In this document: piece after piece, positions 6,399-53,040 of the stretch
Numbering within the stretch: the stretch's first letter is position 1
Layout: every line of letters begins with the position of its first letter
Position numbers and translations under genes: made by a program
The notes under the pieces: generated by a model
Told to the model about the DNA's origin: nothing
Seen by the model: only the letters and a program-made list of their open reading frames with translations
Databases searched by the model: none
Assembly: GCA_965224025.1 (NCBI GenBank)
Contig: OZ245033.1
Coordinates: 1,056,001 to 1,120,000 of the forward strand
DNA: 64,000 bases
Origin: Candidatus Multivorans sp.
GTDB lineage: Bacteria > Acidobacteriota > Thermoanaerobaculia > Multivoradales > Multivoraceae
Direction: 5' to 3'

Positions 6399-6591
6399 CA
6401 CCCGCTTGCCCCGGGGCCGAAGGAGAGTGTCCCAAGGGGCCGCTCGCGCTTGTTTGGTGAAAGAAGGGTTGGGCTCGCTTCGGTCGGCTGCGCTCCGGTT
6501 TGGCGACGTTCGATGAGAGGGCGTCGGGCGTCGCTTGCCGACAGCCCCCCTGGGACCCTTTCCTTCGGCCCCGGGGCGGGCGGGGCGGTCG
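6399..6591 (+). repeat. ~192-bp structured dispersed element, copy 1
   Basis: Starts CACCCGC; ~35-bp terminal stem (CCCCGGGGCCGAAGGAGAGTGTCCCAAGGGG / CCCCCCTGGGACCCTTTCCTTCGGCCCCGGGG); homologous to copies at 25887, 51041, 52849. Confidence 0.85.
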
Positions 6592-6854
6592 TCCGCTGTT
6601 CCGGGGGGCTCCACGGGGCTTGTGCTGGTGTTGGAGGGCGCCGGTTGTTGTCGGGAAGGAGAGGGCCCCTGTGGGCGCTCGCCGCCGGCTGCGGCCCGAA
6701 GCGTCACGGGGTCTGAGATGGCCGTCGTGTCGGTGTCCGGGAGATACCCTCCACGTGAACTTCGTTGGGGACAGTCCTTGTTGTTGGAGACCTGTGGAGC
6801 CGGGGAGAGCTACAGTCCGCGGTCGGCGTCGGCGACTATGGCATGTGCAGCGCC

Positions 6855-6870
6855 TGTTTCACGTGAAACA
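6855..6870. promoter_or_regulatory. parS: parS centromere site
   Basis: Perfect TGTTTCACGTGAAACA upstream of parAB. Confidence 0.95.
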
Positions 6871-6887
6871 GGGCTGATGCCCGCGGT

Positions 6888-7547
6888 TTGGGTCCCGGGG
6901 TGTTTCACGTGAAACATGCCGATCTGTTTCAGCGCGAGTTTGGTGACGAGTTGTCGCGGGAAGCTGTAGATCGGCTGATACGGCATGCCGAGCTCCTGGA
7001 ACGGTGGAACCGGGTGGTTCGCCTGGTCGGGGAAGAAGGGCCGGAGGACTGGATTCGGCGTCACTACGCGGAGTCGGTGGCGGCGCGGGCGTTCTGGCGG
7101 CCTTCAGCACGTAAGGGGAGCGGTGAGCCCGGGCTTCTCGATATCGGTAGCGGCGCCGGGTTCCCGGGTCTCGTCCTTGCGGCCCTCCATCCCGAGCGGC
7201 CGGTGACCCTGGTGGAGGCCCGCGAACGGAAGGCCGCGTTCCTCGCCGAGGCGGCGCGAGAGCTTGAACTTCCCCTCGTGCGGGTCATCCGGGACCGCTT
7301 CGACGTCGAACTCGCGGCGGGAGTGGCTGGGGCGGTAGAGTGCGCGACGATTCGCGGCCTTCGGCTTCCGGAGGCCACGATGGCTCGCTTGGTCCAGGTT
7401 CTGCCTGGTGAAGGGCGCCTGGTTGTGTGGGTGGGCCGGCAACTTGGGTCCGGCCTGGCGGGTATGTGTGCTGTGGAAGAAGAGATCAATCTGCCCGACA
7501 GCCGGCACCGCCGGCTTCTCGTGCTCCGGCCGCGTAGCCGTGGCTGA
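6888..7547 (+). CDS. rsmG: 16S rRNA m7G527 methyltransferase RsmG (GidB)
   Basis: LLERWN..., RHYAES, LDIGSGAGFPG; start may be GTG 6909. Confidence 0.92.
   Translation: MGPGVFHVKHADLFQREFGDELSREAVDRLIRHAELLERWNRVVRLVGEEGPEDWIRRHYAESVAARAFWRPSARKGSGEPGLLDIGSGAGFPGLVLAALHPERPVTLVEARERKAAFLAEAARELELPLVRVIRDRFDVELAAGVAGAVECATIRGLRLPEATMARLVQVLPGEGRLVVWVGRQLGSGLAGMCAVEEEINLPDSRHRRLLVLRPRSRG
6901..6916. promoter_or_regulatory. parS: parS centromere site
   Basis: Second perfect TGTTTCACGTGAAACA, overlapping the rsmG start region. Confidence 0.95.
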
Positions 7548-8298
7548 CGTCCTGGCGGTCGCCAACCAGAAGGGCGGCGTGGGCAAGACGACGTCGGCGA
7601 TCAACCTGGCGGCGGCTTTCGGCGCAATGGAGCGGAGGGTGCTGCTCGTCGATAGCGATCCGCAGGGAAACGCAAGCCGCGGCCTGGGTTGGTCGGGCTG
7701 GTCGCCGACACTGTTCGAAGTGCTCTCCGGCGAGGCCGAAGCCGCTGACGTGGTCGTCTCGAGCGGGTTCCCCTACGTCGACCTGCTGCCGGCGAACCGC
7801 GATCTCGTGGGAGCGGAATTCGGGTTGCAGCGCGACCGGGACTGGATCCGGCGGCTCACATCGTCGCTCAAGAAATTGGGCGAGAACTACGAACGTGTCT
7901 TCGTGGATTGTCCGCCGGCCCTGGGCCGGCTGACCCTGAACGCCCTCTATGCCGCGGACGCGGTCGTCGTACCGCTGCAGTGCGAGTACTTCGCGCTCGA
8001 AGGCATCAGCGAGCTGATGGCCACGGTGCAGCGGGTGCGGGAACTGGGACGGCCGGACCTGGCGATCGCGGGTGTGATCCTCACCATGTACGATGACCGC
8101 ACCAACCTGTCGCGGGACGTTGCGCGGGAGGTGCGCAAGCACTTCGGATCGATCGTCTGCGATACGATCGTTCCGCGCAACGTCCGTCTGGCTGAGGCGC
8201 CAAGTCACGGAATGCCGGTCCTGCAATACGACATCAAGAGCAAGGGCGCCCAAGCCTATCTGGGTCTGGCGCAGGAACTCGCGGCTCGCCGGCCCTGA
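7540..8298 (+). CDS. parA: Chromosome partitioning ATPase ParA/Soj
   Basis: ANQKGGVGKTT, DSDPQGN, LQCEYFALEG, PRNVRLAEAPSHG. Confidence 0.96.
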   Translation: MADVLAVANQKGGVGKTTSAINLAAAFGAMERRVLLVDSDPQGNASRGLGWSGWSPTLFEVLSGEAEAADVVVSSGFPYVDLLPANRDLVGAEFGLQRDRDWIRRLTSSLKKLGENYERVFVDCPPALGRLTLNALYAADAVVVPLQCEYFALEGISELMATVQRVRELGRPDLAIAGVILTMYDDRTNLSRDVAREVRKHFGSIVCDTIVPRNVRLAEAPSHGMPVLQYDIKSKGAQAYLGLAQELAARRP

Positions 8299-8316
8299 TC
8301 GCGCTGCTGGAGTCAC

Positions 8317-9195: not shown

Positions 9196-9728
9196 CAACT
9201 CCCAGCGAGCCCAGTATGTCGAAGATCCTCAAGAACAGCTCCCCAGCCGATCTGAACGGCTTTCTAGATGCCGGCAGCGAGATCCAGGGAGATCTCCGAT
9301 TTCGGAACACGTTCCGGGTGCACGGCCATTTCAAGGGCACGGTCGAATCGGAAGGCGAGTTGATCGTCGGTGAAGGGGGCGTGGTCGAAGGAGTCGTCAA
9401 GGTGGGCGAACTCAGCGTCTCCGGGCGGCTCGAAGGCCAGGTCGAGGCCACGAAGCGGATGGAAATCGGCGGGAACGGTCACGTCGAGGGCGAGATCAAC
9501 TCTCCGGTTCTCGTCATCGCGAGCGGGGCGTTCTTCCAAGGCCAGTGCATCATGAGCCCGTCCGAGGCCGTCCGCCCCGCGAGACCCGGCGTCGTGGATG
9601 GCGGTAAGCCGGCGCCGGCGACTGGGGACTCCGATCCGGCTCTCCAGCGATTCGCTCTTCCGGGAGGAACCGACTCGCCGGCCGAGTCAGTGAGCGGCGA
9701 CGGCGAATCCGCCGGCCAGCCCGAGTAG
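9192..9728 (+). CDS. Bactofilin (polymer-forming cytoskeletal protein)
   Basis: Beta-helix repeats GSEIQGDL...GHFKGTV...GVVEGVV...GAFFQGQCIM; overlaps parB stop. Confidence 0.88.
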   Translation: MTTPSEPSMSKILKNSSPADLNGFLDAGSEIQGDLRFRNTFRVHGHFKGTVESEGELIVGEGGVVEGVVKVGELSVSGRLEGQVEATKRMEIGGNGHVEGEINSPVLVIASGAFFQGQCIMSPSEAVRPARPGVVDGGKPAPATGDSDPALQRFALPGGTDSPAESVSGDGESAGQPE

Positions 9729-9792
9729 CCACGCCCAGTTCAGCCGCGGTCAGGGTGCCGCCATGCACCCGGTGACGGGCGCACGGACTGGT

Positions 9793-11472: not shown

Positions 11473-11562
11473 TGGGCCAACTCTACCGGGAGGACGCGGA
11501 GTCCGCGCCGCGTTTGGGGAAGCGGGACGTCGGCAGGCTCGCCCCACCGCGCGGCCGTGGAG

Positions 11563-11598: not shown

Positions 11599-11647
11599 AC
11601 TCGGCTTCGACCGGAGGCGTGCCGGGAGTGCTACCCTCACTCGCGCC

Positions 11648-22051: not shown

Positions 22052-22399
22052 TGGTGGAGGCGGTGGGAATCGAACCCACGTCCGCGAGACTCGGCGCGAG
22101 GGATCTACGTGCGTAGCCTTCACTCGATTGGTCGCTGCCGGCTTGGGTAGAAGGCCACCACGGCCGGCGGTCTAGCTCCGAAGTGATCCGGTCTGAGTTC
22201 GGAGCAGCGCTCAGACGTTCGATCCACTTTGAGTGTCGCTCCTGACGGCGCCGTGAATCAAGGCTCCGGCAGGACCGTGGAGGTTTCTAAGCCGCCAGTG
22301 CCAATTCGTCGTTGGCGAGTATCAAGAAACCGGTTTACGAGTCGGACTCGGCACGCAACCCCCGAACCGCATGATCTCCCGTCGAAGCCATGCGCCCCC
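22052..22399 (-). ncRNA. ssrA: tmRNA copy 1 (tag ANDELALAA)
   Basis: 5' GGGGGCG...TTCGAC, 3' GGTTCGATTCCCACCGCCTCCACCA, tag GCCAACGACGAATTGGCACTGGCGGCTTAG. Confidence 0.95.
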
Positions 22400-22524: not shown

Positions 22525-25269
22525 CTAGAAGGTCATCCCGAGCTTCAGCCGGAACTCACGCGGAACGAGGTAGCCGCCGGCACTCGAACTCGGCCTTCCG
22601 TTGGCGAGATTCACCGACACCTGATCCTGCTCGTCGGTCACGTTCGCCACCTCGAAGCCGACTTTCCCCGCGAAGGCACCGCGAATCGGAAAGTCCCAGG
22701 CAGCGGCGACCGCCAGCGTCATCGTGTCGGGGAGCTTCTGCGCATCGCGGGGCTCGACGTAGGCCCAGGTGTTGATCCGGGCGCCCGACACGGGATGCAG
22801 CACGGCCGTGCTCGGGCGTAGCCCCCACCGCCGGCCCGCCTGTGCATTGACGATGGCACTCGCGACCACACTCTGATTGCCGATGTCCCAGCGCTTGACC
22901 CCAATGACGTGGGCTACGTACTCGCGATCGGTGTTCAGCCGGCCGTCGAGATTGCGGGCGGTGGGGTTGAGAACCCCAGTCCCAAGCTGGACTCCGCCGA
23001 GGCCCTCGAACTCGTTGCCCTGAGCGTTGAGATCATCTTCGTTGCCCTCGAGCTTGCCGACCGTCAAGTCGGTGCGCAGCGACCAACCCCCGCGGAAGTA
23101 GCGGTTGGCCGCCAGCATCAGCCCCCGGTACTCGCGGAACAGCTCGGGTCGGTTGACGATCTGTCTGAAGATCTGGCCGTCCGCGTCATATTGGTCGTTC
23201 GCCTGGTAGAGGTCTTTCGACTCGTTCCACATCAGCCGAGAGGTGAACACCCAGTTGGGGGCGAACTGCCAGTCCACACCCATCGAGACCTCGTCCTTGA
23301 ACCAGGGCTCGACTGACTGGATCTCGTTGTCGTTGGCCGCGATGAAGCTCCGTTGGAAGATGTCGTATCTCTGGGTTGCCGGGTTCCATCCGAACTGGTC
23401 GAAGGTATTCAGGCCGTTGGTGCCGCGGGTGAAGTGACGGAAGGCGAGGTCCAGCGGGAAGATCCGAACGGCGCGCCCGGCGGTCCCCCGAACCAGGAGC
23501 TTGCCGTCGGCGTTGACGTCGTAAACCGCCGAGAACCGCGGCGCGGGCTCCCGGTAGTCGTTGACCTGCTCGCCGATGTTGTTGGTTACGGTCTGATCGT
23601 CGAGGCGGAGCCCCGCGGTGACCACCCAGTGATCTCCGATGCTGATGCGGTCCTGGGCGTGGATCGCACGCATCGGGCTCTCGTATCTCGAAATGCCGTC
23701 TCCCCCCGGCGACACGTAGACCCGCTTGTTCACGGGTGTCGTGAAGCCGCTCGGCGAATTCAGGTCGTAGCCGCGACCGCGGTAGTCGGTGACGAGGTCG
23801 GCTTTCGCGTTGTAGAACATCGTGTGCTCATCGATCCCGAAGCGCCACTCGTGGTTGCCCTTGAAGAGTGACGCCGCGAGGTTGATCTGCTCGCGAGGAA
23901 AGTCGTTGAAGCCATCGCCGTTGGCCGCCGCGTTACCGTTGTATCGAACCCTGTCGTTGAGGTCCTGGTAGCGGAAGTTGGTGGCGAGCGGGCTATCCGG
24001 CGGAGCGTTGGGGTCGATTTCCCGACGATGCGTAACCCCGCGCGTCAGTTTGTCCGTGCTGTCCGCGACCTTCACCTCGAGGAAGAGGCTCCGGGTGGCG
24101 CTGAAGTTCCAGGCGGCGCTGGCGAGCTTGCTGTCGATCTCTGTCACTGAGAGGGAGTAGATATCCCCGCTGTTTCCCGCGCCCTCGTAGTCGCTCGGTG
24201 CCGTGAGGCCGGTGAACGAGAAATGATGCCGGTCTCCAGCCTGAACGTTGAACTTGCCGACGACCGGCTCGCCCCTCTGGGCAGTCTCGACAACGAAACC
24301 AGTGTTGGTCTGACTGTAGTAGCCGTCGAAGCTCTCACCGGTGGCGACGAAGAACCACGCCCTGTCGCGCCAGATGGGGCCTCCGAGTGAGGCCTCCCAG
24401 GAGTTGAGCTGCTTGTCCGGGCGAGGAAGGTCCGGAGCGACTTGGGAGACAGCGCGCCAGGTGGGGTTCTGACCGACGAAGAGCGCATCGCCGTGAAAGT
24501 CGTTCGTGCCCGACTTGATGACGGTATTGACGATCCCACTGGTGGAGCGGCCGTACTCGGCGCCGTTTCCTGCGACCTGCACGCTGATCGCGGCGGTGGA
24601 GGTGGTCGGCAGGTTGAAGCGGAACTCACCGCCGCGCCGGGTCTGGCTGATGTCGACGCCCTCGATGAACGAGCCCACTTCGTAGGTCAGGCCCCCTGGC
24701 GTGGCCATGAAGCTGCTGTCGTTGGCGGTGTTGCGTGAAGTGACCCCGGGAAGCTGATGCACAGCCGACCCGTACGCGCGACTGGAGAACGCCACTTCCT
24801 CGGTGACCTCAGAGCTCAACGTCGCCGTCAAAGTGGTCTCGAACTTGCTGATCAAGGGCGCCTCGGCGGTCACCGTGATCGCCTCGGCGGTCTCGGAGCG
24901 CAGCTCGAGGTCGATGCCGCGGCGCTCTCCGACCTGCAACTGCGTCGCTACTCTGGCCTGGCCCAGGCCCTCGAGTTCGCCGTGAACCTCGTAGGCGTCC
25001 GGCGGTAGAACGGCGAAGCGGTAGTTCCCGTCGGCATCGGTGATTGCCGTCTTGGTTCCCTGAGGGCCGGTCAGGGTCACCGTGACGCCGGGCAGGGCCC
25101 CACCCTGAGCGTCGAGAGCGCGGCCCTCGATCGTCCCAGTCTGCGGCCCGTCGGCCGACAGGGACATGGGAGCGCAGAGAACGAGGGTTGTGGCGAGAAG
25201 AAGGCGCGGTCGACTAAGTGTTTTCGTGAGCTCAGCTCCCCCAGGGTTTGGGCCGCTACGAACGGCCAA
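22525..25269 (-). CDS. Oar-like TonB-dependent receptor
   Basis: CarboxypepD_reg N-terminus, AEYGRSTSGIVNTVIKSGTNDFHG, LGGPIWRDRAWFF, C-terminal Phe; start uncertain. Confidence 0.9.
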   Translation of the reverse strand: MAVRSGPNPGGAELTKTLSRPRLLLATTLVLCAPMSLSADGPQTGTIEGRALDAQGGALPGVTVTLTGPQGTKTAITDADGNYRFAVLPPDAYEVHGELEGLGQARVATQLQVGERRGIDLELRSETAEAITVTAEAPLISKFETTLTATLSSEVTEEVAFSSRAYGSAVHQLPGVTSRNTANDSSFMATPGGLTYEVGSFIEGVDISQTRRGGEFRFNLPTTSTAAISVQVAGNGAEYGRSTSGIVNTVIKSGTNDFHGDALFVGQNPTWRAVSQVAPDLPRPDKQLNSWEASLGGPIWRDRAWFFVATGESFDGYYSQTNTGFVVETAQRGEPVVGKFNVQAGDRHHFSFTGLTAPSDYEGAGNSGDIYSLSVTEIDSKLASAAWNFSATRSLFLEVKVADSTDKLTRGVTHRREIDPNAPPDSPLATNFRYQDLNDRVRYNGNAAANGDGFNDFPREQINLAASLFKGNHEWRFGIDEHTMFYNAKADLVTDYRGRGYDLNSPSGFTTPVNKRVYVSPGGDGISRYESPMRAIHAQDRISIGDHWVVTAGLRLDDQTVTNNIGEQVNDYREPAPRFSAVYDVNADGKLLVRGTAGRAVRIFPLDLAFRHFTRGTNGLNTFDQFGWNPATQRYDIFQRSFIAANDNEIQSVEPWFKDEVSMGVDWQFAPNWVFTSRLMWNESKDLYQANDQYDADGQIFRQIVNRPELFREYRGLMLAANRYFRGGWSLRTDLTVGKLEGNEDDLNAQGNEFEGLGGVQLGTGVLNPTARNLDGRLNTDREYVAHVIGVKRWDIGNQSVVASAIVNAQAGRRWGLRPSTAVLHPVSGARINTWAYVEPRDAQKLPDTMTLAVAAAWDFPIRGAFAGKVGFEVANVTDEQDQVSVNLANGRPSSSAGGYLVPREFRLKLGMTF

Positions 25270-25482: not shown

Positions 25483-25830
25483 TGGTGGAGGCGGTGGGAA
25501 TCGAACCCACGTCCGCGAGACTCGGCGCGAGGGACCTACGTGCGTAGCCTTCACTCGATCAGTCGCCGCCGGCTTGGGTAGAAGGCCACCACGGCCAGCG
25601 GTCTAGCCCCGAAGTGATCCGGCCTGAGTTCAGAGCCGCGCTCAGGCGTTCGGTCCACTTTGAGTGTCGCTCCTGACGGCGCCGCGAATCAAGGCTCCGG
25701 CAGGACCGTGACGGCTTCTAAGCCGCCAGTGCCAATTCGTCGTTGGCGAGTGTCAAAATTCCGGTTTACGAGTCGGACTCGGCACGCAACCCCCGAACCG
25801 CATGATCTCCCGTCGAAGCCATGCGCCCCC
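25483..25830 (-). ncRNA. ssrA: tmRNA copy 2 (tag ANDELALAA)
   Basis: Full-length 348-nt homologue of copy 1 with intact acceptor stem, T-arm, CCA and tag. Confidence 0.95.
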
Positions 25831-25886: not shown

Positions 25887-26077
25887 CACCCGCCTGACCC
25901 GGGGTTGAAGGAGGGGGTCCCAGGGGACGCTCGCGCTTTCGTGGTGAGTGGAAGATCGGCGCTCGCTTGGGTCGCCTGCGCTCCGGGAAGTCGTCGGTTC
26001 AGGGAAGGTCGTCAGCAGTAGCTTGGCTCCAGCCCCCTAGGACCCCCTCCTTCAACCCCGGGCCAGGCTGGACGTCG
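25887..26077 (+). repeat. ~192-bp structured dispersed element, copy 2
   Basis: CACCCGC start; stem GCCTGACCCGGGGTTGAAGGAGGGGGTCCCAGGGG / CCCCCTAGGACCCCCTCCTTCAACCCCGGGCCAGGC. Confidence 0.85.
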
Positions 26078-26472: not shown

Positions 26473-27648
26473 GTGCGGACTCACGACGCAGGAGACGTTG
26501 CAACAGCCTTAGGGGGCAAGTTGGCTGCCCGGTCACGACACGTATGCCTTTTCCTAGGCGCTGGTGCCAGCAAAGCCTGTGGCTTGCCGGACGTGGAGGA
26601 GTTGGAGGAGACTGTGCTGGACAGCCTTGCAGCTCCGGATGAGACCGTGCTGCGGAGGCTGCTAGAGGGCCGAACTCTCGAGCAGGTTCTAAGTCGCCTC
26701 CGCCGAATTGCGGGACTCGTCTCCGGTGAAGCTGCGGTTGATGGTCTAAGAGCAAAGGACGCTGAGAATCTAGATAACGCGGTGTGCCGGGCGATTGTGG
26801 ACGCGCTGAGTGTGGATAGCGCTTCACCCACTGCAGCCCACTATCTTGCTGTCTGGGCGGCGCGAGCAAACTACCGCGTTCCTGTGGAGCTCTTTACGGT
26901 GAACTACGATCTGCTCCTTGAGAGTGCGTTGGAGCATGTGGGGGCACCCTACTTCGATGGGTTCGTCGGGGCGCTTGAGGCTCGGTTCCATACCGAGTTA
27001 GTGGAGGCAACAGAGGGCAGGGATGACGAGACGGTGCCTCGGTTCTTTGTTCGGCTTTGGAAGCTGCACGGCTCTGTCAACTGGGTTCGAAGGGAGGAAG
27101 GAGGGATCGTTAGACTTGGACAGGTCGCCCCTAACACGCGACCGGCGGCGATCTATCCGTCGGATACAAAGTACGAGGAGTCTCGACGTGTCCCGTTCCT
27201 TGTCCTTCAGGACCAGTTCAGGAGGGCCCTTCATCGGCCGGAAACACTTGTGTTGATTAGCGGCTATTCCTTTGGGGACGAACACCTTAACGAGCACATT
27301 TACGGCGCGGCGACACGCCGAGCTCGGTCGGAGTTCATCGTGTTCTGCTTTGACGAGATTCCCGAGCCCCTAGCGGATCGCGCCATGTTGACGCCGAACC
27401 TCCAAGTCTTAGCCGCCCAAGAGGCGATTATCGGTGGCGTCAGGGGGAATTGGCAGGAACCGAAAACTCCTGTGACGGATGTCTGGCGCGATGATGCCTT
27501 CACGCTCGTCGACTTCAACGAACTCGCGAGACACTTGGCGCGCAGCACGGCCCCACAGTACGAAGACGGACGGGCCTTGGAGGAGTTGCTAGAGCGGCTC
27601 GGCGTCGGTGGCGGATCTGCGGTTGAGGGCGGAGAGAAGGGTGGTTGA
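26473..27648 (+). CDS. SIR2-like (SIR2_2) NADase, Sir2-HerA defence effector
   Basis: FLGAGAS, FTVNYD, KLHGSVNW, IYPS, GYSFGDEHLN. Confidence 0.9.
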   Translation: MRTHDAGDVATALGGKLAARSRHVCLFLGAGASKACGLPDVEELEETVLDSLAAPDETVLRRLLEGRTLEQVLSRLRRIAGLVSGEAAVDGLRAKDAENLDNAVCRAIVDALSVDSASPTAAHYLAVWAARANYRVPVELFTVNYDLLLESALEHVGAPYFDGFVGALEARFHTELVEATEGRDDETVPRFFVRLWKLHGSVNWVRREEGGIVRLGQVAPNTRPAAIYPSDTKYEESRRVPFLVLQDQFRRALHRPETLVLISGYSFGDEHLNEHIYGAATRRARSEFIVFCFDEIPEPLADRAMLTPNLQVLAAQEAIIGGVRGNWQEPKTPVTDVWRDDAFTLVDFNELARHLARSTAPQYEDGRALEELLERLGVGGGSAVEGGEKGG

Positions 27649-29403
27649 GCAGGATCCGACACGAATCGGGCAAGTCCTTCGGGTACGGGGCGCTGCCGTC
27701 ACGGTCGCGCTCGATCCCGACTTGGCCGGCACCTCGCCGATCTTCCGAGGGCGCCTTCACGCTGTAGGACAGATCGGATCGTTAGTTCGAGTTCCGCAGG
27801 GAGCTGTGGATCTCGTTGCCACCGTGGTCTTCGTCGGTATCACTGAAGGACAGAGCGACGTTGCGCCGACATCGGCACTCCAGCCGGAGGAACGGTACCT
27901 GCAGGTACAGTTACTCGGACAGATTGATCGCGGAACAGGGACGTTTCAGCGTGGTGTGGGGTCGTATCCTGGACTTGACGATCCAGTGCACTTCGCAACT
28001 CCCGAAGAACTGAAGGCGGTCTTTCCTGGCCCCGGGGATGAGAACCTACCTCTAGGACGTCTCGCTGCGGCTGAGGAGACTCCCGTGTGCGTGGAGGCAA
28101 AGAGCTTTGTTGTCCGTCACGCGGCGGTCGTTGGGTCGACGGGCTCGGGCAAGACCAGCGCCGTTGCGGCCACGCTCCAAGGCTTCGTCAAGGGAGGTTG
28201 GGATGCTGCGAACATCGTTGTGGTGGACCCACACGGCGAGTACTCCCGAGCCATGGACGGGTACGCGTCGGTCAGGAGCGTCCTAGGAAGTGGCGCAAAC
28301 CGCCTGCGTGTTCCGTTTTGGGCGATGGCGGCGAACGATATTGTCCGCGTCTTTTGTGGGTCTTGGGCGAGGGGACGTTCTACAAACGTTTCGTCGAACT
28401 CGTTACGCAGCACCGGCGGGAGTTCGTTAGGGCCGCCAACTGGCTTTCATTGGAGCCCTCGGCGGTTACAGCCGATACACCAGTGCCGTTCGATATTCGA
28501 GAAGTGTGGTATCAGCTTGATGCTGAGAACAACATGACTCTGAAAGAAAAGGGCAACCCAGACACCGTGTGTAAGAAGAGCGAAGGCAACGCTTCAGAAC
28601 TGCATCCCGCGACCTTTACACCCTACGGTGCTGGCGGTAGGTCGCCCCACCAGGGCCCGTACTACGGAGTCCATGGCACCTTACCGAACCAACTGCGGCT
28701 CGGCCTGCTGGACCCTCAACTGCGGGCCTTTCTGTCGCCGGAGGGTGAGACGGACGGTACAGACCCGATGATCGAGGTCGTGCAGAGTTGGCTCGGCGAT
28801 GAACGCCCAGTATCTGTGCTCGACTTTAGCGGAGTGCCAGCGATTGCGGCGGACCTTGCGATAGGCGTCGTACTGAACTTGATCTTTGAGATCTCTCTCC
28901 GTTGCGACTTCGGCGGGCCTGGCATCGGGCGGCCCTGTCCCGTCTTGATAGTCCTTGAGGAAGCGCATCGCTACCTTGGAAGCGAGGCCGGCGCTCTGAC
29001 ACGTCAATCCGTGAACAGGATTGCTCGGGAGGGTCGAAAGTACGGCGTCGGCATCATGCTTGTCTCGCAACGTCCGACGGAGCTCCCAAGTACTGCGCTG
29101 GCGCAATGCGGAACGTTGGTTGCACTCAGGCTTTCGAACTCGGGGGACCAGGGGGCGATTCGAGCGGCTCTGCCTGACGAGATTGGGGGCTTGGCTGCCG
29201 CCCTGCCTTCACTGCGTACGGGGGAGGCGATTGTGAGCGGGGAGTCCATGGTATTGCCGGCTCGCATTCTTTTTGATATGCCTGAGCCTAGGCCGAAGGC
29301 AGATGATCCAAGCCTAGAGGCTTGGCGCGGCAAGCCTGCGGTCCCGGACGTTGCGCCAGCTTTGATGGCTTGGCGTGGAACACATGAGGTTGCAGATGAT
29401 TGA
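27641..29403 (+). CDS. herA: HerA/DUF87 ATPase, split by a -1 frameshift at ~28359
   Basis: N-part: HAS barrel, GSTGSGKT, DPHGEY; C-part: LEEAHRYL, IAREGRKYG, SQRPTEL, LRTGEAI. Confidence 0.87.
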
Positions 29404-29614
29404 TTGGAAACCTGTGAGTAACTCTACGCGGATCGTCGCGGAAGCGTACGATCCGACGGCGGAGACGATTTACGTGCGCTTCCCTAGTGGAGTTGAGTGG
29501 TGGTACTCGGCATGTCCACCGGAGGTCTGGGGGGCTTTCACTGCTCCAGGGCAGTCGCGCGGCGCGTACATCCATGAGGTACTGAATCACAAGCCCCACG
29601 GGCGTCACGGCTAG
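29396..29614 (+). CDS. KTSC-domain protein
   Basis: S..I...AYDP...TIYVRFPSG...Y..CPPEVW..F......S.G.Y; overlaps herA stop by 8 bp, RBS GAGGT. Confidence 0.8.
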   Translation: MIDWKPVSNSTRIVAEAYDPTAETIYVRFPSGVEWWYSACPPEVWGAFTAPGQSRGAYIHEVLNHKPHGRHG

Positions 29615-29789
29615 CAAAGTGAGGCTAGGCATGCCTCCGTCCGTTGTGCCGGTGTTGTATGGAGGTGTAGGACGTTAGACGCCTAACCCGAACGAGCTTG
29701 GCAAGTACGCCGGGAAGAACCCTGTAACAGCGCCGGATCCGCGGCGACGTATGGCGGACCTCGGAGGCCGCGCGGGTACCTACGGAGGG

Positions 29790-29890
29790 GAACTCGGCTC
29801 TCGCTTCGGTCGGCCCCGTTCCCGGATGGGGCTGGTCTGGATCACGGTGACGACTGTCGCTGCCGACAGCGTTGGGGACTCTCCCCTAGG
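29790..29890 (+). repeat. Partial/degenerate copy of the ~192-bp element (internal core only)
   Basis: CTCGCTTCGGTCGGC and GTCGCTGCCGACAGC at 55-bp spacing, versus 56 bp in copy 1. Confidence 0.55.
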
Positions 29891-30006
29891 GATTTCTGCC
29901 GGCGAGCTTGCGGCAGGGACGCTCTCGCGCGCGGAACAGGTGGCCGCCACGGGTGATCGTCAGAGGCGGCTCGGATGACGTCCTGCAGGAACTGATCCCG
30001 GCTCGC

Positions 30007-32922: not shown

Positions 32923-32943
32923 GAGGAGTCGGAGGGGGGCTTC

Positions 32944-33627
32944 CTAGTCCAGGTCCGGGGCTTCTCCGACGGTCAGGATGCGTGGCGGTTCGGTCCAAGG
33001 ATACAGGTCCATGTCGAACCGGCGGAGCCACTTCAACTCGGAGCATCGGATCGCAAGCGCGAGTCGCTGCCACCGCTCATTGACGACCCGACCGTAGCTG
33101 GTGGTCAGGCGCAGCTGCTGATCGCTGTCCCTGTAGCCGCTGAGCAGCGGCACGAGGAGGATGCCTGTGTCGCTGCCGTCATCGGCAGTGCTGCTCTTGA
33201 TGATGAACCCCAAGTACGTTTTGCCGCTCGGAAAGGCGACTTCGATGAGACTGCCGTCATCGAAGGTGTCGCAGATGAGCTGGTCAACGAGGTCGCCTTT
33301 CTTGTCCGCCAGTCGCCGCCGAGCGCGGAGGGGCTTGTACCACCAGTTCAGGGGCACCGGCGCCAGCGCCGCGAGGAGCAAGCTGCCGACTGCCGCGCCG
33401 CTCACCTGTAACGCTGACCACCCCGGCAGGAGATCGAGCCAGCTATACAGGCTAGGGCACAACTGCCCAGCGACAGCAGCCACCAGATAGAGAGCCAGTC
33501 CGACCAATGTCGCCCTGAAGACGACGTGGTAGCCGGATTCTCGCCGGAGACCGAACTTCCAGATGTTCGTCAAGCGCAGGAGTAGGTACCCGGCGAGAGC
33601 CGGGACGAAGAACTCCCAAGCAGGCAC
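32944..33627 (-). CDS. Hypothetical membrane protein (3 TM plus C-terminal GKTYLG...PLLSGYR domain)
   Basis: Hydrophobic N-half, soluble C-half; directly upstream of the R-M gene. Confidence 0.65.
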   Translation of the reverse strand: MPAWEFFVPALAGYLLLRLTNIWKFGLRRESGYHVVFRATLVGLALYLVAAVAGQLCPSLYSWLDLLPGWSALQVSGAAVGSLLLAALAPVPLNWWYKPLRARRRLADKKGDLVDQLICDTFDDGSLIEVAFPSGKTYLGFIIKSSTADDGSDTGILLVPLLSGYRDSDQQLRLTTSYGRVVNERWQRLALAIRCSELKWLRRFDMDLYPWTEPPRILTVGEAPDLD

Positions 33628-42735: not shown

Positions 42736-43425
42736 CCGCCGGGCGCGATCCCAGTCGTCGGCCGTGTTCACGTTCAGCAGGACCCGGTCCGGCTCGCCGA
42801 AGCGCGCCGCTCCGATCGGCTCGATCTTCAGGCGCGAGCAGCGGGTGAGTGGATAGAGCCGAAAGTCACCGCGCTTCACCCGCGCCTCGAGCAGGGCGAG
42901 CGCCGCCGGTGTCCACAGTGCGCAGGTCGCGTTCATGGAGCGTGGGTCCGCCGGGTCCGTGGTGGCCGGCGCCAACTCGGCCTTGGAAGCGGCCACGGCG
43001 CCAAGCAGTGCCACGGGCGCCAGCGGGAGGTCGCAGGCGAGCACGAGCAGCCGACACTTCGGCCGTGACCGGGCCGCGCCGAGCACACCGGCCGCCGGTC
43101 CTGAACCAGGGCCATCGCCAACGACGGACACCGGCGCCTTGCGCCCCCTGGGAACGCGGGCGTCTCGCCCGCATCCGCCCGAATCGACTCTACTGTCGGC
43201 GTCGCCCGCAGCCACGACGACCTCTTCGACTGCGGCGACCTCGGTAAGTCGGATCACGGCCCATTCCACGAGCGTAGGCCCCGGCTCGCCCGGCCGCTGA
43301 CCCGGCAGACGAAGACCGGCCTTGCTTTGCCCCAGGCGGCTACCGGCACCGCCCGCCAGGACCACGCCCAGGAGACTGCTAGGCTCCGTCTCCGCGCCTG
43401 CGGCATGCGGCCCGGGCGGATTCAC
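42697..43425 (-). CDS. mobA: Molybdenum cofactor guanylyltransferase
   Basis: [29 protein letters not shown]; start approximate. Confidence 0.85.
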
Positions 43426-47239: not shown

Positions 47240-48352
47240 ATGTCCTTGACGGCCGGGGATGCGACGGCGTTCCGGGGATTCGTCCTCGGCATCGAAACCT
47301 CCTGCGACGACACGGCATGCGCGGTGCTCGACGGCGAGGGTCGGGTGCTCTCGTCCCAGGTTTCGAGCCAACTGGAGGTCCATCGCCCCTTCGGTGGCGT
47401 TGTGCCGGAGGCGGCGTCGCGCGAGCATCTCCGGAACTGGCCGGCGGTTTCGGACGCGGCGCTGGCGGAGGCGGGGATCGGCTGGTCGGACATCGGGGCG
47501 GTCGCCGCGACCCGGGGACCCGGGCTGGTGGGGTCGCTCCTGGTCGGGCTGTCCCTCGGCAAGGCGATCAGCTACTCCCTGGGGACGCCGTTCCTTGCCG
47601 TCCACCACCTGGAAGGGCATCTGTTCTCGCCCCTGCTCGGGATCGACGGCGGGAGCCAGCCGCTGCCCGAGTCGATGCTGGGTCTGGTCGTGTCCGGCGG
47701 CCACACCAGCCTGCTCGAGGTGGACGGCGGAACGGGCGCCGTGACGAGCCTTGCCGAGACCCGCGACGACGCGGTCGGGGAAGCGTTCGACAAGGTCGGC
47801 CGCCGGCTCGGGCTGCCGTTTCCCGGCGGCGCCGAAGTCGACCGGCTGGCCGAACTGGGCGATCCGTCAGCGTGGCGGTTCGGCACAGCCAGAATCAGCT
47901 CGAACGAGCTGGCCTTCTCGTACTCGGGCCTGAAGAGTCAGGCTCTGCGGGCGCTGGGGGAGACCCTGACCCGGACCGGGATTCCGCCGGCGGCGCTCGG
48001 AGGTGACGACGATGCATGGCCGCGCGAAGTGCTCGACCTGCTGGCGGGCTTCCGGCGGGCCGCCGTGGACCAGTTGCTCCAGCGCCTGGACCGCCTCTGC
48101 GTCGAGCGTCCCGTGACGCGCCTCTCGGTATCGGGCGGCGTGGCGGCGAACCGTCTGCTGCGGCGGGAGGTGACGGCCTGGGGCGAACGCCGTGGCGTCG
48201 AGGTACTGCTCGTGCCGCTCCGGTTCAGCGGCGACAACGCGGCGATGATCGCGCACGCCGGCCTGCTGCGCCTTCGCAGGGGCGACGCGGACGATCCGCG
48301 CTCGGCGGACGCCGAAAGCAGGATTCCCTTCGCGCCGGGCGTCTCATTGTGA
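47240..48352 (+). CDS. tsaD: tRNA N6-threonylcarbamoyltransferase TsaD
   Basis: GIETSCDDT, GGVVPE.ASREH, HHLEGH, SGGHT, DDAVGEAFDK, GGVAAN, DNAAMIA. Confidence 0.96.
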   Translation: MSLTAGDATAFRGFVLGIETSCDDTACAVLDGEGRVLSSQVSSQLEVHRPFGGVVPEAASREHLRNWPAVSDAALAEAGIGWSDIGAVAATRGPGLVGSLLVGLSLGKAISYSLGTPFLAVHHLEGHLFSPLLGIDGGSQPLPESMLGLVVSGGHTSLLEVDGGTGAVTSLAETRDDAVGEAFDKVGRRLGLPFPGGAEVDRLAELGDPSAWRFGTARISSNELAFSYSGLKSQALRALGETLTRTGIPPAALGGDDDAWPREVLDLLAGFRRAAVDQLLQRLDRLCVERPVTRLSVSGGVAANRLLRREVTAWGERRGVEVLLVPLRFSGDNAAMIAHAGLLRLRRGDADDPRSADAESRIPFAPGVSL

Positions 48353-48438
48353 CCCGGGTCTTCTGACCCGGGCCAGGTCACTTGGGCCGCGCAAGACCGT
48401 CCCATAGTGACCCGGGTCTTCTGACCCGGGCCAGGTCA
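48349..48438. repeat. Two identical 32-bp palindromic (REP-like) direct repeats
   Basis: GTGACCCGGGTCTTCTGACCCGGGCCAGGTCA at 48349-48380 and 48407-48438, between convergent genes. Confidence 0.85.
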
Positions 48439-48452
48439 AAACGCCTAGCCGC

Positions 48453-49232: not shown

Positions 49233-49245
49233 GGCGGTCTGTTTC

Positions 49246-49896
49246 TCAGAAGCTCTGCGCGGGGACGAAGTACTGCGTGCCCCGGATCGGTCGGGTGATG
49301 TGGTGCAGCAGTTCCTCGAAGTCCGCGGGTTTGTGTTCGAAGTCCAGGTTGCGGCTGTCCACCACCAGACGCGGGGACTGATCGTAGTGGTAGTAGTAGT
49401 GGTTGTAGGCCTCGATCAACTGGGCCAGGTAGTCGGCGGAGATGTGCTGCTCGATGTCGCGCGAGCGCTTGTGAATGCGCGCCATGCAGGTCTCCACGTC
49501 GGCGGTCAGAAAGATCAGCAGGTCCGGTCCGAGGAGCTGTGGTTCGAGCAGGTCGTAGAGCTTCTCGAACAGCATCAACTCGTCGTCGACCAGGTTGAGG
49601 TAGGCGAACAGCCTGCTCTTGGCGAAAGTGTAGTCGGCGAGGCGGATGGGATCGAAGAGATCGCCCTGGGCCAGTTCCAGTTGCTGCTTGTAGCGCGTCA
49701 GCAGGAAGTAGAGCTCGGTCTGGAACGCGGTCCCGGGCCGGTCGTGGTAGAAGGCCTCGAGAAAGGGGTTGTCCACGTCCTCGAGGATCTTCACGCCCTC
49801 GAAATGCTGCGCGAGCATCTCGACGAGTGTCGTCTTGCCTACGCCGATTGGTCCGTCGACGGCCAGGTACCGATACGGAAGCGCGTCAACGGGCAC
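49246..49896 (-). CDS. Deoxynucleoside kinase
   Basis: [31 protein letters not shown]. Confidence 0.9.
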
Positions 49897-49999
49897 TGCG
49901 CGGACTATACAATCCCCCGCGGCGCCGGGACCGTCGGGGCGGCGGGTTCGTCGCGCCCGAAGCGACGGCAAGAGAACTTCCGAGAGGGGGACGATAGAA

Positions 50000-51004
50000 G
50001 TGAATCCCTGGTGGCGGAGACCGGCGGCGGAAAATGGCCCCGCCAAGGCGGCGCCGGAGAGGGGCAGCGCCGCGGACACGGGCGTGCAGGAGGAAGAAAG
50101 CGGGCAGATCGAAGAACCCGCCGGCGAGCCGGAGGCTCAGGCGGCTGCCGAGGAGGTTGAAGCGGCCGCCGCGGAGGAGAGCGCACCGGCCGCCGATACA
50201 TCGTCTCCGCTGGTCGATGCCGGGGCGGCGCCCGCCGGGGATGCGGAAGCATGCGTTGATGCGCCGGAAGCCGCCGCCGATGCAGCCGCTCAAGAGAACG
50301 TGGCTCGGGAGGCGGATGCGGCGGCCGGAGACGACCCTGGTGAAGCGGGTGTTTCGCCGGCCCTTGAGGCGGCGACGGAACCTGCGCGGCCCGTCCGAGC
50401 GGCGCCCGCGGACGAGGACAAGCCGGCGCCGGCCAAACGCCGCCGCCGTCGCCGCCGGCGCGGCGGTCGCGGTCGGGCGGCGCAGAGTGAGGGCGAATCG
50501 GGCGCGCCGAAGGAAACCCGAGCCGTGCCCGCCGGTCCGCCCGCGGCGTCGCCGTCGGCGGCTGGACGGACGGCCGTGCTGCTCGATCTGGGTGCCCTGA
50601 AACGCAGCCTGGGAGCAACCTCCGGGCTCGATCCGGAGGGTCTGTTTACGCGCTTCGACGAGGACCTTGGGAAGCTCGTCCTGCGCCGCGTCTACGCGGA
50701 TGCGGGGGACCACGACCTGGATCGCGCCGCGCTTCACCGCGGCGGCGTCGAAGTCGTCGACGTGCCGTCGAACATGGAGGAGCGCGGTTGTTCCGCCGCG
50801 GTGCGGATCGTGGTGGATGCTCTCGAACTCTGCTACACGAAGCCCGGTGTCAACACCATGGTGCTGGTGGCGTCGTCGGTGCAGACGCTGCCCCTGGTGG
50901 CCAAGCTGCAGCAGAACGGCGTCAGGGTGATCGGCCTCGGCGGAGCGGATGCCGACGCGCGGGTGCGCGGCCAGTGCGACCGCTTCATCGATGTGGGCGG
51001 CTAG
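50000..51004 (+). CDS. NYN/LabA-like domain protein with disordered N-terminus
   Basis: C-terminal RRVYAD, IVVDALELCY, PLVAKL...GVRVIG.G, CDRFI. Confidence 0.7.
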   Translation: MNPWWRRPAAENGPAKAAPERGSAADTGVQEEESGQIEEPAGEPEAQAAAEEVEAAAAEESAPAADTSSPLVDAGAAPAGDAEACVDAPEAAADAAAQENVAREADAAAGDDPGEAGVSPALEAATEPARPVRAAPADEDKPAPAKRRRRRRRRGGRGRAAQSEGESGAPKETRAVPAGPPAASPSAAGRTAVLLDLGALKRSLGATSGLDPEGLFTRFDEDLGKLVLRRVYADAGDHDLDRAALHRGGVEVVDVPSNMEERGCSAAVRIVVDALELCYTKPGVNTMVLVASSVQTLPLVAKLQQNGVRVIGLGGADADARVRGQCDRFIDVGG

Positions 51005-51040
51005 CAGGCCCGCGTCGGGCTGGCGTTTCGGCGTCGGACG

Positions 51041-51350
51041 CACCCGCCCGTCTTGGGACAGGAGGGGTCGGCTCCCAGGTGACGTGAGCGCTTGAGAGGA
51101 GATGGGATGGGGTGGCGCTCACTCCGCTTCACTCGCTCCGGTTGGTCGTCGGTGAGTGCAACGTCGTCGGGCGTCGCTCGTTCAGAGGCACCTGGGAGCC
51201 GACCCCTCCTGCCCCGACTGGGCTGGCGGTCGTTGCCGAGAGGGCGGGCTATCGAGAGGGCTGGCCATAGCTCGCTCCGAGTCCGCAGGGACCCTCCTCA
51301 CAGGCCCCCGGACTGGCCGGAGGGCGTTGGGCTGATGAGCGGCCGGAACG
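51041..51350 (+). repeat. ~192-bp structured element copy 3 (51041-51232) plus ~120-bp tail shared with copy 4
   Basis: Inverted homologue of 52745-53040; internal stem GGGACAGGAGGGGTCGGCTCCCAGGTG / CACCTGGGAGCCGACCCCTCCTGCCCC. Confidence 0.9.
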
Positions 51351-51370
51351 GACGTGTTGGTGGGCGAGCG

Positions 51371-52681
51371 TTAGAGTTCTGAACCCGTGCTGGAAGCAGC
51401 CTGGACCAGGGAGTTTGCCGCGTAGTCCAACTGGCCCTCGGTGACCACCAACGGCGGCGCGATCTGCAGCACTGTGCCGGAAGCGCCGCCGCTCAGGGCG
51501 ATCACACCGCGTTCGAGGAGTTGCCGACTGAGGCGGGCCGCCCGTTCCGGCGCGTCGAGTTCCACACCCCACAGCAGCGCCGTGCCGCGGACGTCGACGA
51601 CGCCTGGTTGCTGCTCGAGCAACTCGAGGCGAGGGCCGAAGTGGCGGCCCATCTCTCGCGACCGCTCGATCAGGGCTGCACTCTCGATCACTTCGAGCGT
51701 CGCGAGGGCAGCGGCGCAGGCGAGTGGATGCGCGACGAAGGTCGCGGTGTGGCGGGCCTCGCCCTCTGTCTGCCAGGAGGCCATGACGTCCTTCTTTCCG
51801 AGCACGACTGCGATCGGGAGACCACCGCCCAGGGCCTTGCCGCAGCAGATGAGATCCGGCTCGATTTCCGACTCCGCGCTGAGGAACCACTCGCCGCAGC
51901 GGCCGAACGCGGTGAAGATCTCGTCGACCGCCAGGACCACGTCGTGCGCACGGCAGGCCGCGGCCAATCCGGCCAACCAGCCCGGAGGAGGCCATCGGGT
52001 CGCCTCGCGGCCGATCACTGGTTCGACCAGACAGGTTCCGATCTGCGGTTGGCGATGCAGCAGGTGTTGGACCTCTTCAAGTCTCGCGCCGTAGGGCAGT
52101 CGGTGAATCTGGTTCTCCAGCGGCTCGGTGAAGGGAGTCCGAAAGGCCGACCTCGAAGTGCCCTGGAGAGCCCCCAGAGTGGTGCCGTGGTACGCAGGCG
52201 TGAACGCGAGGATTCCCGGACGGCCGCTGTACAGGCGCCCGGTCTTGAGCGCGATCTCCACAGCGTCGGCTCCCGAAGCGGCAAAGTAGACGCGGGGTTC
52301 TGGAAAGGGCGCCAGGGAAACCAGCCTCTCGCCCAGTTCGATGCGGGCCGGATGGGCATAGACATCACCGAGCCCGTGGAGGAGGCGATCCGCCTGCCGC
52401 TTGACCGCCGAGACCACGGCAGGATGCCGGTGGCCCACCGCGGCGACTCCGAACCCGGCCGTCAGGTCGAGGTAGCGATTGCCGTCGATATCGAGCACAT
52501 TGCTGCCGAGAGCCTCCTCCCACAGCATCGCGGTGCTTCCGCCGACGAGGGTGTTGATCCCAGGCGCCTCGGCCGCGTCGAGCCGCCTGGCTGCCCTCCC
52601 GGCTCGTGGCCCCGGCAGCGACGTTCTCATCTGCGGCAGTTGATCACCGCTGTCGAGTCGGTGCGAACGAGGAGCAGCCAT
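51371..52681 (-). CDS. Class III PLP aminotransferase (GabT/ArgD-like)
   Basis: DIDGNRYLD, SGADAVEIALK, AYHG.T, DEIFTAFGR, GKALGGG. Confidence 0.9.
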   Translation of the reverse strand: MAAPRSHRLDSGDQLPQMRTSLPGPRAGRAARRLDAAEAPGINTLVGGSTAMLWEEALGSNVLDIDGNRYLDLTAGFGVAAVGHRHPAVVSAVKRQADRLLHGLGDVYAHPARIELGERLVSLAPFPEPRVYFAASGADAVEIALKTGRLYSGRPGILAFTPAYHGTTLGALQGTSRSAFRTPFTEPLENQIHRLPYGARLEEVQHLLHRQPQIGTCLVEPVIGREATRWPPPGWLAGLAAACRAHDVVLAVDEIFTAFGRCGEWFLSAESEIEPDLICCGKALGGGLPIAVVLGKKDVMASWQTEGEARHTATFVAHPLACAAALATLEVIESAALIERSREMGRHFGPRLELLEQQPGVVDVRGTALLWGVELDAPERAARLSRQLLERGVIALSGGASGTVLQIAPPLVVTEGQLDYAANSLVQAASSTGSEL

Positions 52682-52744
52682 GCCGAAGGTCAGAGGCTAG
52701 CGTCTTCTCTCGGACTCGCCTTGCCATCCGCTTGAGGCACTGCC

Positions 52745-53040
52745 CCGTTCTGGCCGCCAATCAGCCCGCCGTCCTCCAGCCCGTGCCGGGGCCCGTGAGC
52801 GGGTCCCGCGCGGACCCGGAGAGAGCGGTAGCCAACCCCTCTCGGCACCGACGTCCAGCCCAGTCGGGTCAGGAGGGGTCAGCTCCCAGGTGCCTCTGAA
52901 CGAGCGAAGCCCGACGACGTTGCACTCACCGACGCCCAACCGGAGCGAGTGAAGCGGAGTGAGCGCCATCCCCTCCCATCTCCTCTCAGGCGCTCACGCC
53001 ACCTGGGAGCTGACCCCTCCTGACCCAAGACGGGCGGGTG
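52745..53040 (-). repeat. ~192-bp structured element copy 4 (52849-53040) plus shared tail
   Basis: Reverse complement aligns to 51041-51350 with scattered substitutions. Confidence 0.9.

Follow-up and report, generated by a model that had tools for sequence, protein, structure and literature searches.

What kind of element is a folded sequence of about 192 bp that recurs between genes of a Candidatus Multivorans genome (G000), and by which means does it spread? The question arose from a window of 64,000 nt (GenBank assembly GCA_965224025.1, contig OZ245033.1, positions 1,056,001 to 1,120,000), in which a first, sequence-only reading had described four complete copies and a partial fifth. All four copies lie where described, measure 193, 191, 192 and 192 nt, start with CACCCGC and end near GGC(T/G)GG, and the fifth, which a covariance model also recovered, is real. 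The features of the window are as follows:

6399..6591, + strand: copy 1, subfamily with a Watson-Crick inner helix (covariance model, 154 bits)
25887..26077, + strand: copy 2 (covariance model, 177 bits)
29724..29910, + strand: fifth, degenerate copy inside the SIR2/HerA/methylase island (31.7 bits, E 1e-4)
51041..51232, + strand: copy 3, young subfamily with a tandem G-A inner helix (198 bits)
about 51043-51081 with 51189-51226: closing stem of copy 3
51084-51091 with 51115-51122: helix P2 of copy 3
51124-51136 with 51176-51188: helix P3 of copy 3
51253..51333, + strand: remnant of an older, decayed copy (3' half), immediately 3' of copy 3
51371..52681, - strand: class III aminotransferase gene, flanked by copies 3 and 4 in opposite orientations
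52770..52835, - strand: decayed 3' remnant beside copy 4 (weak; 18.8 bits, E 0.025)
52849..53040, - strand: copy 4, inverted, 93-94% identical to copy 3 (192 bits)
53033..53158, - strand: 5' end of the element repeated six times head-to-tail, in units of 21 nt

The jag gene (5579-6385, R3H protein) ends with its stop codon 14 nt before copy 1, and the stop codon of an NYN-domain gene lies 37 nt upstream of copy 3. The tmRNA gene (25483-25830, - strand) is divergent from copy 2, and its promoter region adjoins the 5' end of this copy; a scan for promoters and terminators around copy 2 found none. The six 21-nt head repeats fill the space between copy 4 and the stop codon of DegT (53190), and their number varies in relatives.

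Fold, ends and strand asymmetry

Folding z-scores of -7.2 for copy 1 and -5.1 for copy 3, with 0 of 200 shuffles equally stable, agreed with the stable closing stem described before. Based on covariation, however, the element is not a simple rod but a three-way junction, consisting of a 35-bp closing stem and two inner helices. Paired cells amounted to 94.9%, and the covariation score was 0.39 compared to 0.15 after shuffling and at most 0.08 when slid. The claim of a maintained structure held, since both partners vary in 25 of the 37 pairs and none of 500 shuffles reached the score. The compensatory stem words given as examples in the sequence-only reading are present in the sequence; they fall within the long closing stem, in which copying between the arms might yield them without selection. 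The two inner helices, which had been overlooked, are the stronger evidence for a maintained structure.

A fixed length of about 192 bp applies to the four copies (191-193 nt), but the element itself is slightly longer, with a conserved motif of 11-12 nt beyond each end. A 186-nt core and this GTCGG-type motif at either end add up to about 205-215 bp in total. The terminal motif is direct and lies outside the internal inverted repeat, and no TA was seen. An extra 3' hairpin with at least 7 pairs occurred in only 15 of 166 copies and was excluded from the element definition. According to the sequence logo, about nine of ten copies carry a CGTC/CCTC word at the antisense stem's 5' foot. The search against Rfam resulted in no match above the gathering score (best: a plant miRNA hairpin that scored 26.6 bits where 150 were required), in line with the earlier statement that no family was recognised. 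The word GAAGCGG is limited to one subfamily; for this reason, and as no supporting literature was found, its reading as a primosome assembly site was rejected.

The two ends differ: one is sharp, with head repeats and low-complexity filler, while the opposite one fades. Head duplications numbered 13 versus 1 in 166 copies, and the filler is family-specific, being CGGCG-rich in the main family and GGCTG-rich in the divergent genome G011.

Read on the strand opposite to the upstream gene, the mismatches that are conserved form G-A pairs, and on this antisense strand eight of ten unpaired column pairs examined read G-A/A-G, in whole or in one subfamily. In the closing stems of 166 copies, again read on the antisense strand, we counted 90 G-A versus 11 C-T, 32 G-G versus 5 C-C, and 78 G-T versus 50 A-C; wobble pairs numbered only 50-78, compared with 4918 Watson-Crick pairs. 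These mismatch counts are non-independent, as kin and orthologous loci were included. With the ends trimmed imprecisely, folding favoured the sense strand for 70 of 72 copies using RNA energies and for 48 of 72 using DNA energies. This predicted preference counts against the antisense working strand of the reading favoured below.

Distribution, placement and constraint

Counting genome-wide, as had been suggested at the outset, we found 56-59 element matches in G000, 31 of them full length, and the element in 40 of 42 Ca. Multivorans genomes. The divergent genome G011 possesses its own variant with 118 matches, including one 6-unit tandem array. No element was detected in 150 other Acidobacteriota (covariance model, strict filters), in 16 genomes of other families (BLAST), or in viral contigs, plasmids and phages. 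Metagenomes contributed 17 element loci, and all of those with comparable genes closely resemble G000 proteins. The host genus comprises sponge-associated Acidobacteria and is a common sponge symbiont.

In 38 cases, the orthologue of a G000 gene in another genome has a copy beside it, and 18 of these G000 genes have one as well. When G011 sites were tested in the same way, one of 25 genes carries a copy in G000 and the other 24 are empty. A young, star-like subfamily is spread over many loci. As judged from these sequence comparisons, the element spreads within the genus, i.e., it is mobile. The closest genomes are about 90-93% identical, many 'empty' sites hold remnants, and no clean filled/empty pair was found.

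Placement is polar: the 5' end of the element hugs a stop codon or a promoter. The 5' gap is shorter than the 3' gap in 28 of 31 full-length G000 copies (p 5e-6), and the 5' end adjoins the stop codon of a gene with the same orientation in 33 of 42 G000 copies, in 73 of 86 copies from 80 other loci, and in 34 of 55 copies of G011, where it lies at a promoter instead in 21 of 55. Convergent gaps hold 18 of 42 G000 copies, compared to 15% of gaps of at least 200 nt. Copies also tend to be neighbours (nine neighbours within 5 kb versus 2.3 expected, p 0.002), while a replichore bias is absent in G000 (29 leading versus 25 lagging; 16 versus 12 in the clean-skew region). The upstream genes are core genes (recA, recR, ruvA, rplQ, valS, relA) with no common function.

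Resident copies appear to be constrained. Locus-specific subtypes persist, with one subfamily each at jag (15/15) and ruvA (17/17). Based on 14 complete copies among 30 ruvA loci (91 pairs), four-fold sites differed by a p-distance of 0.28 and the P3 loop by 0.30, compared to 0.16 for the closing stem and 0.12 for the inner helices; old copies thus seem to keep their helices while the loop drifts like synonymous sites. Together with the co-oriented stop codons and the better folding of the sense RNA, such slow helices and stable subtypes would suit a once-mobile repeat that is now kept mainly for the host, its stem in the 3' UTR blocking 3' exonucleases or being cut by RNase III, and so tuning the upstream gene. 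Such roles have been proposed for REP, ERIC, Correia and YPAL repeats, and ERIC and Correia repeats are precedents (PMC2229807, PMC3049150). We regard this explanation as possible but rather unlikely. In the mRNA, those inner mismatches that are conserved would set pyrimidine against pyrimidine, and much of the co-orientation stems from convergent gaps, the excess in head-to-tail gaps being only 15:7 in G000 (p 0.13) and 14:8 in G011. Copies are frequently lost or broken, e.g., 10 of 30 jag loci lack an element match, and patchy gene conversion could also slow helix change. The promoter-side copies of G011 and the lack of a function common to the upstream genes speak against it as well.

Rearrangements, other elements at the junction and the search for a helper enzyme

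Tandem and nested copies were found whose joints share one GTCGG. Furthermore, copies are crossover points of inversions, with the crossovers falling inside the copies, as in the inversions hinged on the element at ruvB and at an origin-side block in the window. Over 49800-53030, contigs of four runs broke at the repeats; their opposite-strand joints are indistinguishable from other copies of the repeat and were left out of the evidence. The aminotransferase gene between copies 3 and 4 is an ordinary gene, and its orientation relative to DegT varies among relatives. A cognate, REPtron-like gene between inverted copies was rejected, as the genes differ by pair (aminotransferase, ruvB, sialidase-like, others).

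Three unrelated mobile elements target one junction of the element, within a span of about 45 nt, namely a tyrosine-integrase island carrying McrBC, a group II intron with a reverse transcriptase (RT) in 6 of 42 genomes, and a 65-nt REP-like unit. All split copies inspected were decayed or interrupted by other elements. None of them showed an IS110 insertion, and of 31 IS110 matches in G000 the nearest lies 2.8 kb away. The use of the element by the island and the intron, the crossovers within copies, and a bottom-strand fold co-oriented behind stop codons recall an unusual integron-type, attC-like site for a tyrosine recombinase. This idea is extremely improbable and largely refuted by gene context: core genes and not cassettes lie upstream, no gene-element-gene arrays were found, the attC end boxes R and L are not at the stem foot, and the island enters the element at its centre, not its foot.

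The sequence-only reading had also proposed looking for target-site duplications and a linked RAYT or other transposase, and neither search succeeded. In 166 copies, shared flank words did not exceed those of swapped pairs, in a test that is blind to duplications of 2-4 nt. RAYT-type Y1 genes gave 31 matches in 25 of 42 genomes, but none in G000; the element was within 1.5 kb of a RAYT gene in 0 of 30 loci examined, and the RAYT genes of the genus are flanked by other REPs. IS91 Y2 matched weakly in 1 of 42 genomes, with a control search that itself matched 0 of 14 genomes, and Rep_trans in 0 of 42. RT matches occurred in 22 of 42 genomes, but not in G011, G042, G050, G006 and G007. Five genomes with at least 34 element matches, including G011, had neither Y1 nor RT matches, and none of RAYT, IS91, Rep_trans and RT tracks the element. 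A GIY-YIG search was uninformative, as each genome yielded a single long protein, whose size suggests UvrC. Finally, no matching transposase ends were found, nor an IS with the same ends among the split copies inspected. Thus, of the proposed non-autonomous mobile element, mobility stands, and REPIN-like describes it best; it is non-coding, has a long stem-loop and, at under about 200-400 bp, the size of a MITE, but without target-site duplication or matching transposase ends it is not a classical one.

The element might also be an RNA-templated short retro-element, analogous to SINEs, in which an antisense transcript (e.g., read-through from a convergent gene) would be copied from its 3' end by an RT onto a nick behind the stop codon, stuttering at the start. 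The sharp end with its head repeats and tail-like stutter, the fading other end, a sense strand made on a G-A-rich antisense template, the absent replichore bias and the enrichment in convergent gaps would all follow, and an RT-bearing intron already targets the element. This explanation is nevertheless decidedly unlikely, given an RT distribution that leaves out element-rich G011, an intron found in six genomes, no target-site duplication and wobble pairs that are very scarce for an RNA helix. Moreover, the head repeats may equally have arisen when tandem copies collapsed across the hairpin and slippage later expanded what was left.

Proposed mechanism and comparison with known systems

The reading that we favour, at about an even chance, is a non-coding, non-autonomous, REPIN-like single-strand mobile repeat moved by an enzyme encoded elsewhere. 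This trans-encoded enzyme would act on the element in the form of a folded single strand and copy it into new intergenic sites. The folded strand is probably the template strand of the upstream gene, because on it the conserved mismatches take the form of G-A, G-G and G-T pairs and A bulges. A strand-transfer enzyme may recognise the conserved stem foot and join at the terminal motif, and old copies would therefore be preferred targets. Events at the 5' end would trim the flank or stutter, halting only at a stop codon or promoter; this could be why this end hugs genes. The closing stem would be re-perfected by arm-to-arm copying. The apparent constraint on resident copies counts against this REPIN-like reading, as selfish copying alone does not predict it, and so does the lack of replichore bias, since IS200/IS605 elements are lagging-strand. 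Quite unlikely, in our view, is a bacterial short interspersed repeat moved by no known transposase family, whose G-A-rich antisense strand (RNA or ssDNA) would be copied onto the coding strand behind stop codons by an RT or a core host enzyme, and whose multi-copy Y-junction would be a common docking site and inversion hinge; the element would then be the first such repeat to be well resolved.

The family is a sharp test case for the spread of short repeats without a linked transposase, with a defined fold and strand, polar ends, a 118-match genome without Y1 or RT matches, and old copies with measurable constraint. As target and inversion hinge, the element also shapes genome order and the uptake of defence genes in its host.

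Among known systems, REPINs and REP-BIMEs with RAYT (PMC3116915, PMC6006769, PMC3733652) resemble the element in their non-coding, intergenic hairpin units, which have conserved ends and a compensatory variable spacer, form tandem arrays, nest in one another, favour positions 3' of genes and are targeted by other elements. For REPINs, PMC3116915 covers compensatory changes, arrays in tandem and insertions into copies already present. In contrast, our element shows no GTAG-type REP of 20-40 nt at either end (logos, alignment), forms a three-way junction with G-A pairs and polar ends, and flanks no RAYT gene. ERIC/IRU, Correia (NEMIS), RUP, YPAL/RU-2 and SPRITE repeats share the size of 100-200 bp, the long stem-loop, the intergenic location and the enrichment in convergent gaps, according to PMC2229807, PMC3049150 and PMC3184786; there, YPAL likewise has internal inverted repeats without TA ends and is not AT-rich, and SPRITE lies close to 3' ends. 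The element differs from this group of repeats in having no TA termini, no detected target duplication, no IS found with matching ends and no U tract, and in that non-canonical pairs are conserved on its template strand. CGTC-tagged repeats, as presented in PMC3733652, also carry the CGTC/CCTC word and have no dedicated transposase, but their stems of 8-9 bp with loops of 4-5 nt contrast with a 35-bp stem closing two further helices; that paper leaves open how transposase-less short repeats spread and persist. As a host repeat serving as a multi-copy safe harbour, the element resembles attC, targeted by group IIC-attC introns, and REPs, targeted by IS1397 and IS621 (PMC4424553 and PMC3184786, where homing sites, terminators and attC are given as group II intron targets). 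What sets it apart from these targets is that three unrelated mobile elements converge on a single junction.

Conserved copies and their distribution

The four intergenic copies claimed by the sequence-only reading at 6399-6591 (+), 25887-26077 (+), 51041-51232 (+) and 52849-53040 (-) aligned end to end over their full length and scored 154-198 bits against a covariance model of 51 copies, which also revealed a degenerate fifth copy at 29724-29910. The proposed folding into a stem was confirmed as well, since copies 1 and 3 were far more stable than shuffles (z -7.2 and -5.1); on the antisense strand, i.e., opposite to the one first read, copy 3 reached z -6.1 as DNA and -7.0 as RNA. That the repeat matches no known family held in Rfam for copies 1 and 3, which gave no meaningful match; tmRNA, tRNA, and SRP were the sole matches in the window.

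In the Ca. Multivorans source genome (G000), where the window covers C1:1056001-1120000, two profile searches resulted in 59 and 56 matches, 31 of them full length. Within the genus, the covariance model found the element in 40 of 42 genomes (2 to at least 60 matches each); 150 further Acidobacteriota genomes gave it no match, and searches of phages, plasmids, and viral contigs likewise ended without one. A pattern scan of species-representative genomes yielded at least 115 stretches with the element; the 80 listed were titled as Ca. Multivorans, Thermoanaerobaculia, Holophagales, or Acidobacteria MAGs, two of them as a Vicinamibacteraceae MAG; these bacteria are sponge symbionts. The Vicinamibacteraceae-titled copies (L236, L248) are intact and either moved between bacteria that live together or sit on mis-binned contigs. 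Altogether, the element is real and genus-restricted.

Around copy 2, the following features were annotated:

22052-22399, minus strand: full-length tmRNA gene
22525-25269: TonB-dependent receptor gene, between the two tmRNA genes
25483-25830, minus strand: full-length tmRNA gene
26473-33627: SIR2-like/HerA/Eco57I-like methylase island behind copy 2, holding the degenerate fifth copy

Both tmRNA genes (c. 94% identical) share the same tag peptide and -10 word; the entire gene has been duplicated here, whereas integration usually leaves just a 3' fragment. The island genes look like anti-phage defence, and HerA, split over two frames that overlap (27608-28537 and 28087-29403), looks frameshifted. 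Two perfect palindromes of parS type, conserved in relatives (6855-6870 and 6901-6916), lie between jag and rsmG-parA-parB, 260 nt downstream of copy 1. At 2662-2977, two tRNA-Ser genes precede a third copy of the tRNA 3' portion (2922-2977), possibly an integration scar.

Fold, covariation, and strand

Based on 166 distinct copies, the core comprises about 186 nt, with a closing stem (P1) averaging 34.5 Watson-Crick pairs and carrying two inner helices, P2 and P3, which are joined nearly linker-free and have loops of c. 24 and 40 nt. Outside the stem, each end displays an 11-12-nt motif with GTCGG or a variant, and at tandem joints the adjoining ends have only one such motif between them. Flanks shared no longer words than swapped pairs; therefore, no sizeable target duplication was found. 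In alignment A2, 94.9% of 1878 cells were paired and 25 of 37 pairs varied on both sides, in agreement with the claim that pairing is kept while stem sequence changes; two-sided change affected four pairs each in P2 and P3. None of 500 shuffles, nor any slid register, approached the structure score. Since the consensus structure was derived by RNAalifold from the same alignment, with one pair added by eye, and kin copies are not independent, these statistics are support short of a formal test.

Unpaired positions inside the helices were conserved, being G-A or A-G when the antisense strand is read, namely at the stem foot (49/51 copies), in P2 (38/51 and 37/51), and at the inner end of P3 (51/51 and 50/51). 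Sporadic P1 mismatches in the 166 copies were likewise read on this strand as G-A rather than C-T (90 vs 11) and G-G rather than C-C (32 vs 5), and 132 of 201 P1 bulges on it were A. In a YGAR context, tandem G-A pairs are stable in both DNA and RNA folds. Counter to an antisense reading, energy models for RNA gave the sense strand the better fold in 70 of 72 copies. According to PMC5737381, folded DNA motifs are hard to tell from RNA motifs computationally; its supplementary motifs were compared through Rfam only. Wobble pairs make up only about 1% of P1, and in one subfamily the P2 mismatch has turned into a perfect inverted repeat, which suggests that arm-to-arm copying at the DNA level keeps the stem matched.

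Placement, rearrangement, and turnover

Using our own codon-based gene calls, the 5' end of the element was found to lie beside the stop codon that ends a co-oriented gene in 33/42 G000 copies, in 73/86 copies of 80 scanned loci (median c. 30 nt, orthologous loci uncollapsed), and in 34/55 copies of G011, a divergent genome with its own variant; remaining copies mostly adjoined, at 50-140 nt, the region where a divergent gene starts. The firm placement result is polarity, seen in the gaps and in the head duplications given below. Among 31 full copies, 28 had a smaller gap on the 5' side than on the 3' side (medians 47 and 253 nt). In G000, convergent gaps were enriched and divergent ones depleted (18/42 and 2/42 copies; p 4e-7), with an orientation bias of only 15:7 in head-to-tail gaps; no replichore bias was found with the origin placed by skew and parS. 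One convergent gap (L205) contains two copies in tail-to-tail arrangement, both preceded by a stop codon of their own. Upstream genes were a mix of core and metabolic genes (64/73 checked against Pfam). A host 3' UTR role as the main reason for persistence, compatible with REPIN-like copying, is conceivable, though we consider it rather unlikely.

Of 166 copies, 13 had short tandem duplications at the 5' end and one at the 3' end; the 21-nt array preceding copy 4 belongs to these head repeats, its unit count varying among relatives. Behind jag, 20 of 30 loci matched, several as arrays of 2-4, and a second locus held a copy or stub in 9 of the 25 loci listed. Among 38 G000 genes with the element at orthologues elsewhere, 18 carry a copy in G000; the same test for G011 resulted in 1/25. 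The G011 variant (118 matches) has a shorter P1 with P3 and foot mismatch unchanged, and at L369:1020-2470 it forms a 6 x 234-nt tandem array directly behind a stop codon. In L012/L112, another form of local amplification repeats the element 3' half with a flank piece at 180-nt spacing. A tree of 63 copies, omitting those missed by the end-finding rules, split into two subfamilies, showed retention at particular loci, and placed 12 G000 copies in a young radiation; neighbouring copies were closer together and more alike than expected by chance. At the ruvA locus, divergence of the P3 loop (0.30) resembled that of four-fold sites (0.28), with P1 (0.16) and the inner helices (0.12) less diverged, so these copies are either old residents under constraint or conversion-patched.

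In five relatives, the aminotransferase start faces recR, and all five have a tRNA gene behind the NYN-domain gene. In G000, the NYN flank is joined through copy 3 to the sequence that G052 and G016 have after their DegT copy, and the DegT flank is joined through copy 4 to recR-side sequence, an arrangement that two inversions with crossovers inside copies would explain. Read by eye, at least 4 of the 27 loci listed have ruvB inverted with respect to ruvA.

Insertions at the junction, copying, and known repeats

Three elements insert at the element junction. A 65-nt two-hairpin REP-like unit (17 distinct copies with differing stems) occupies the P1/P2 boundary, always in one orientation. A 14-kb island in G052, carrying McrBC and a tyrosine integrase with Arm-DNA-binding, central, and catalytic domains, splits a copy with an overlap at model positions 81-92; G000 has three related left junctions and G019 has one. 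A group II intron, identified by Rfam and Pfam matches, has its 5' junction at the same element base at four different loci in four genomes (G056, G053, G012, and G000 at 4443709); only one in-element 3' junction was readable, with an element match of only 4 nt. One further intron site lies outside the element and is common to G052 and G000 contig 2; these sites account for all intron junctions but one. In G056, the intron-bearing copy follows a Topoisomerase VI subunit A gene (L325:10093-11121). Contig 2, which may represent a second strain (contamination figure 5.66%), also holds an internally deleted copy (G000:C2:21420-21580) behind a gene resembling that before the copy at C1:2353251.

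No helper co-distributed with the element was found among RAYT-type Y1, IS91-type Y2, Rep_trans, and reverse transcriptase genes, and RAYT genes of the genus have other REPs on either side. This absence is weak evidence, given that hundreds of REP-type repeats persist in G000 although it has no RAYT. Single-strand, REPIN-like copying by a putative trans-acting enzyme, a reading to which we give an even chance, is favoured ahead of the host 3' UTR, RNA-templated, and attC-like readings; copying from an RNA template appears improbable to us, and a site resembling attC very improbable. Other REP-type families occur at 2009-2039, 43147-43177, and 48340-48438, whose sister sequences flank RAYT genes in relatives, G000 itself having none.

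In the full-text literature searched, which covers few subscription papers, neither this repeat nor any repeats of Ca. Multivorans are described; the element is uncatalogued in the sources searched and of the hairpin intergenic repeat kind. By the tests that define them, the element does not belong to the MITE, REPIN, or attC families. Known repeats and their targets were compared via PMC3184786, PMC3116915, PMC6006769, PMC3733652, PMC2229807, PMC3049150, and PMC4424553; in its enrichment in convergent gaps, the element resembles the pneumococcal repeats (PMC3049150).
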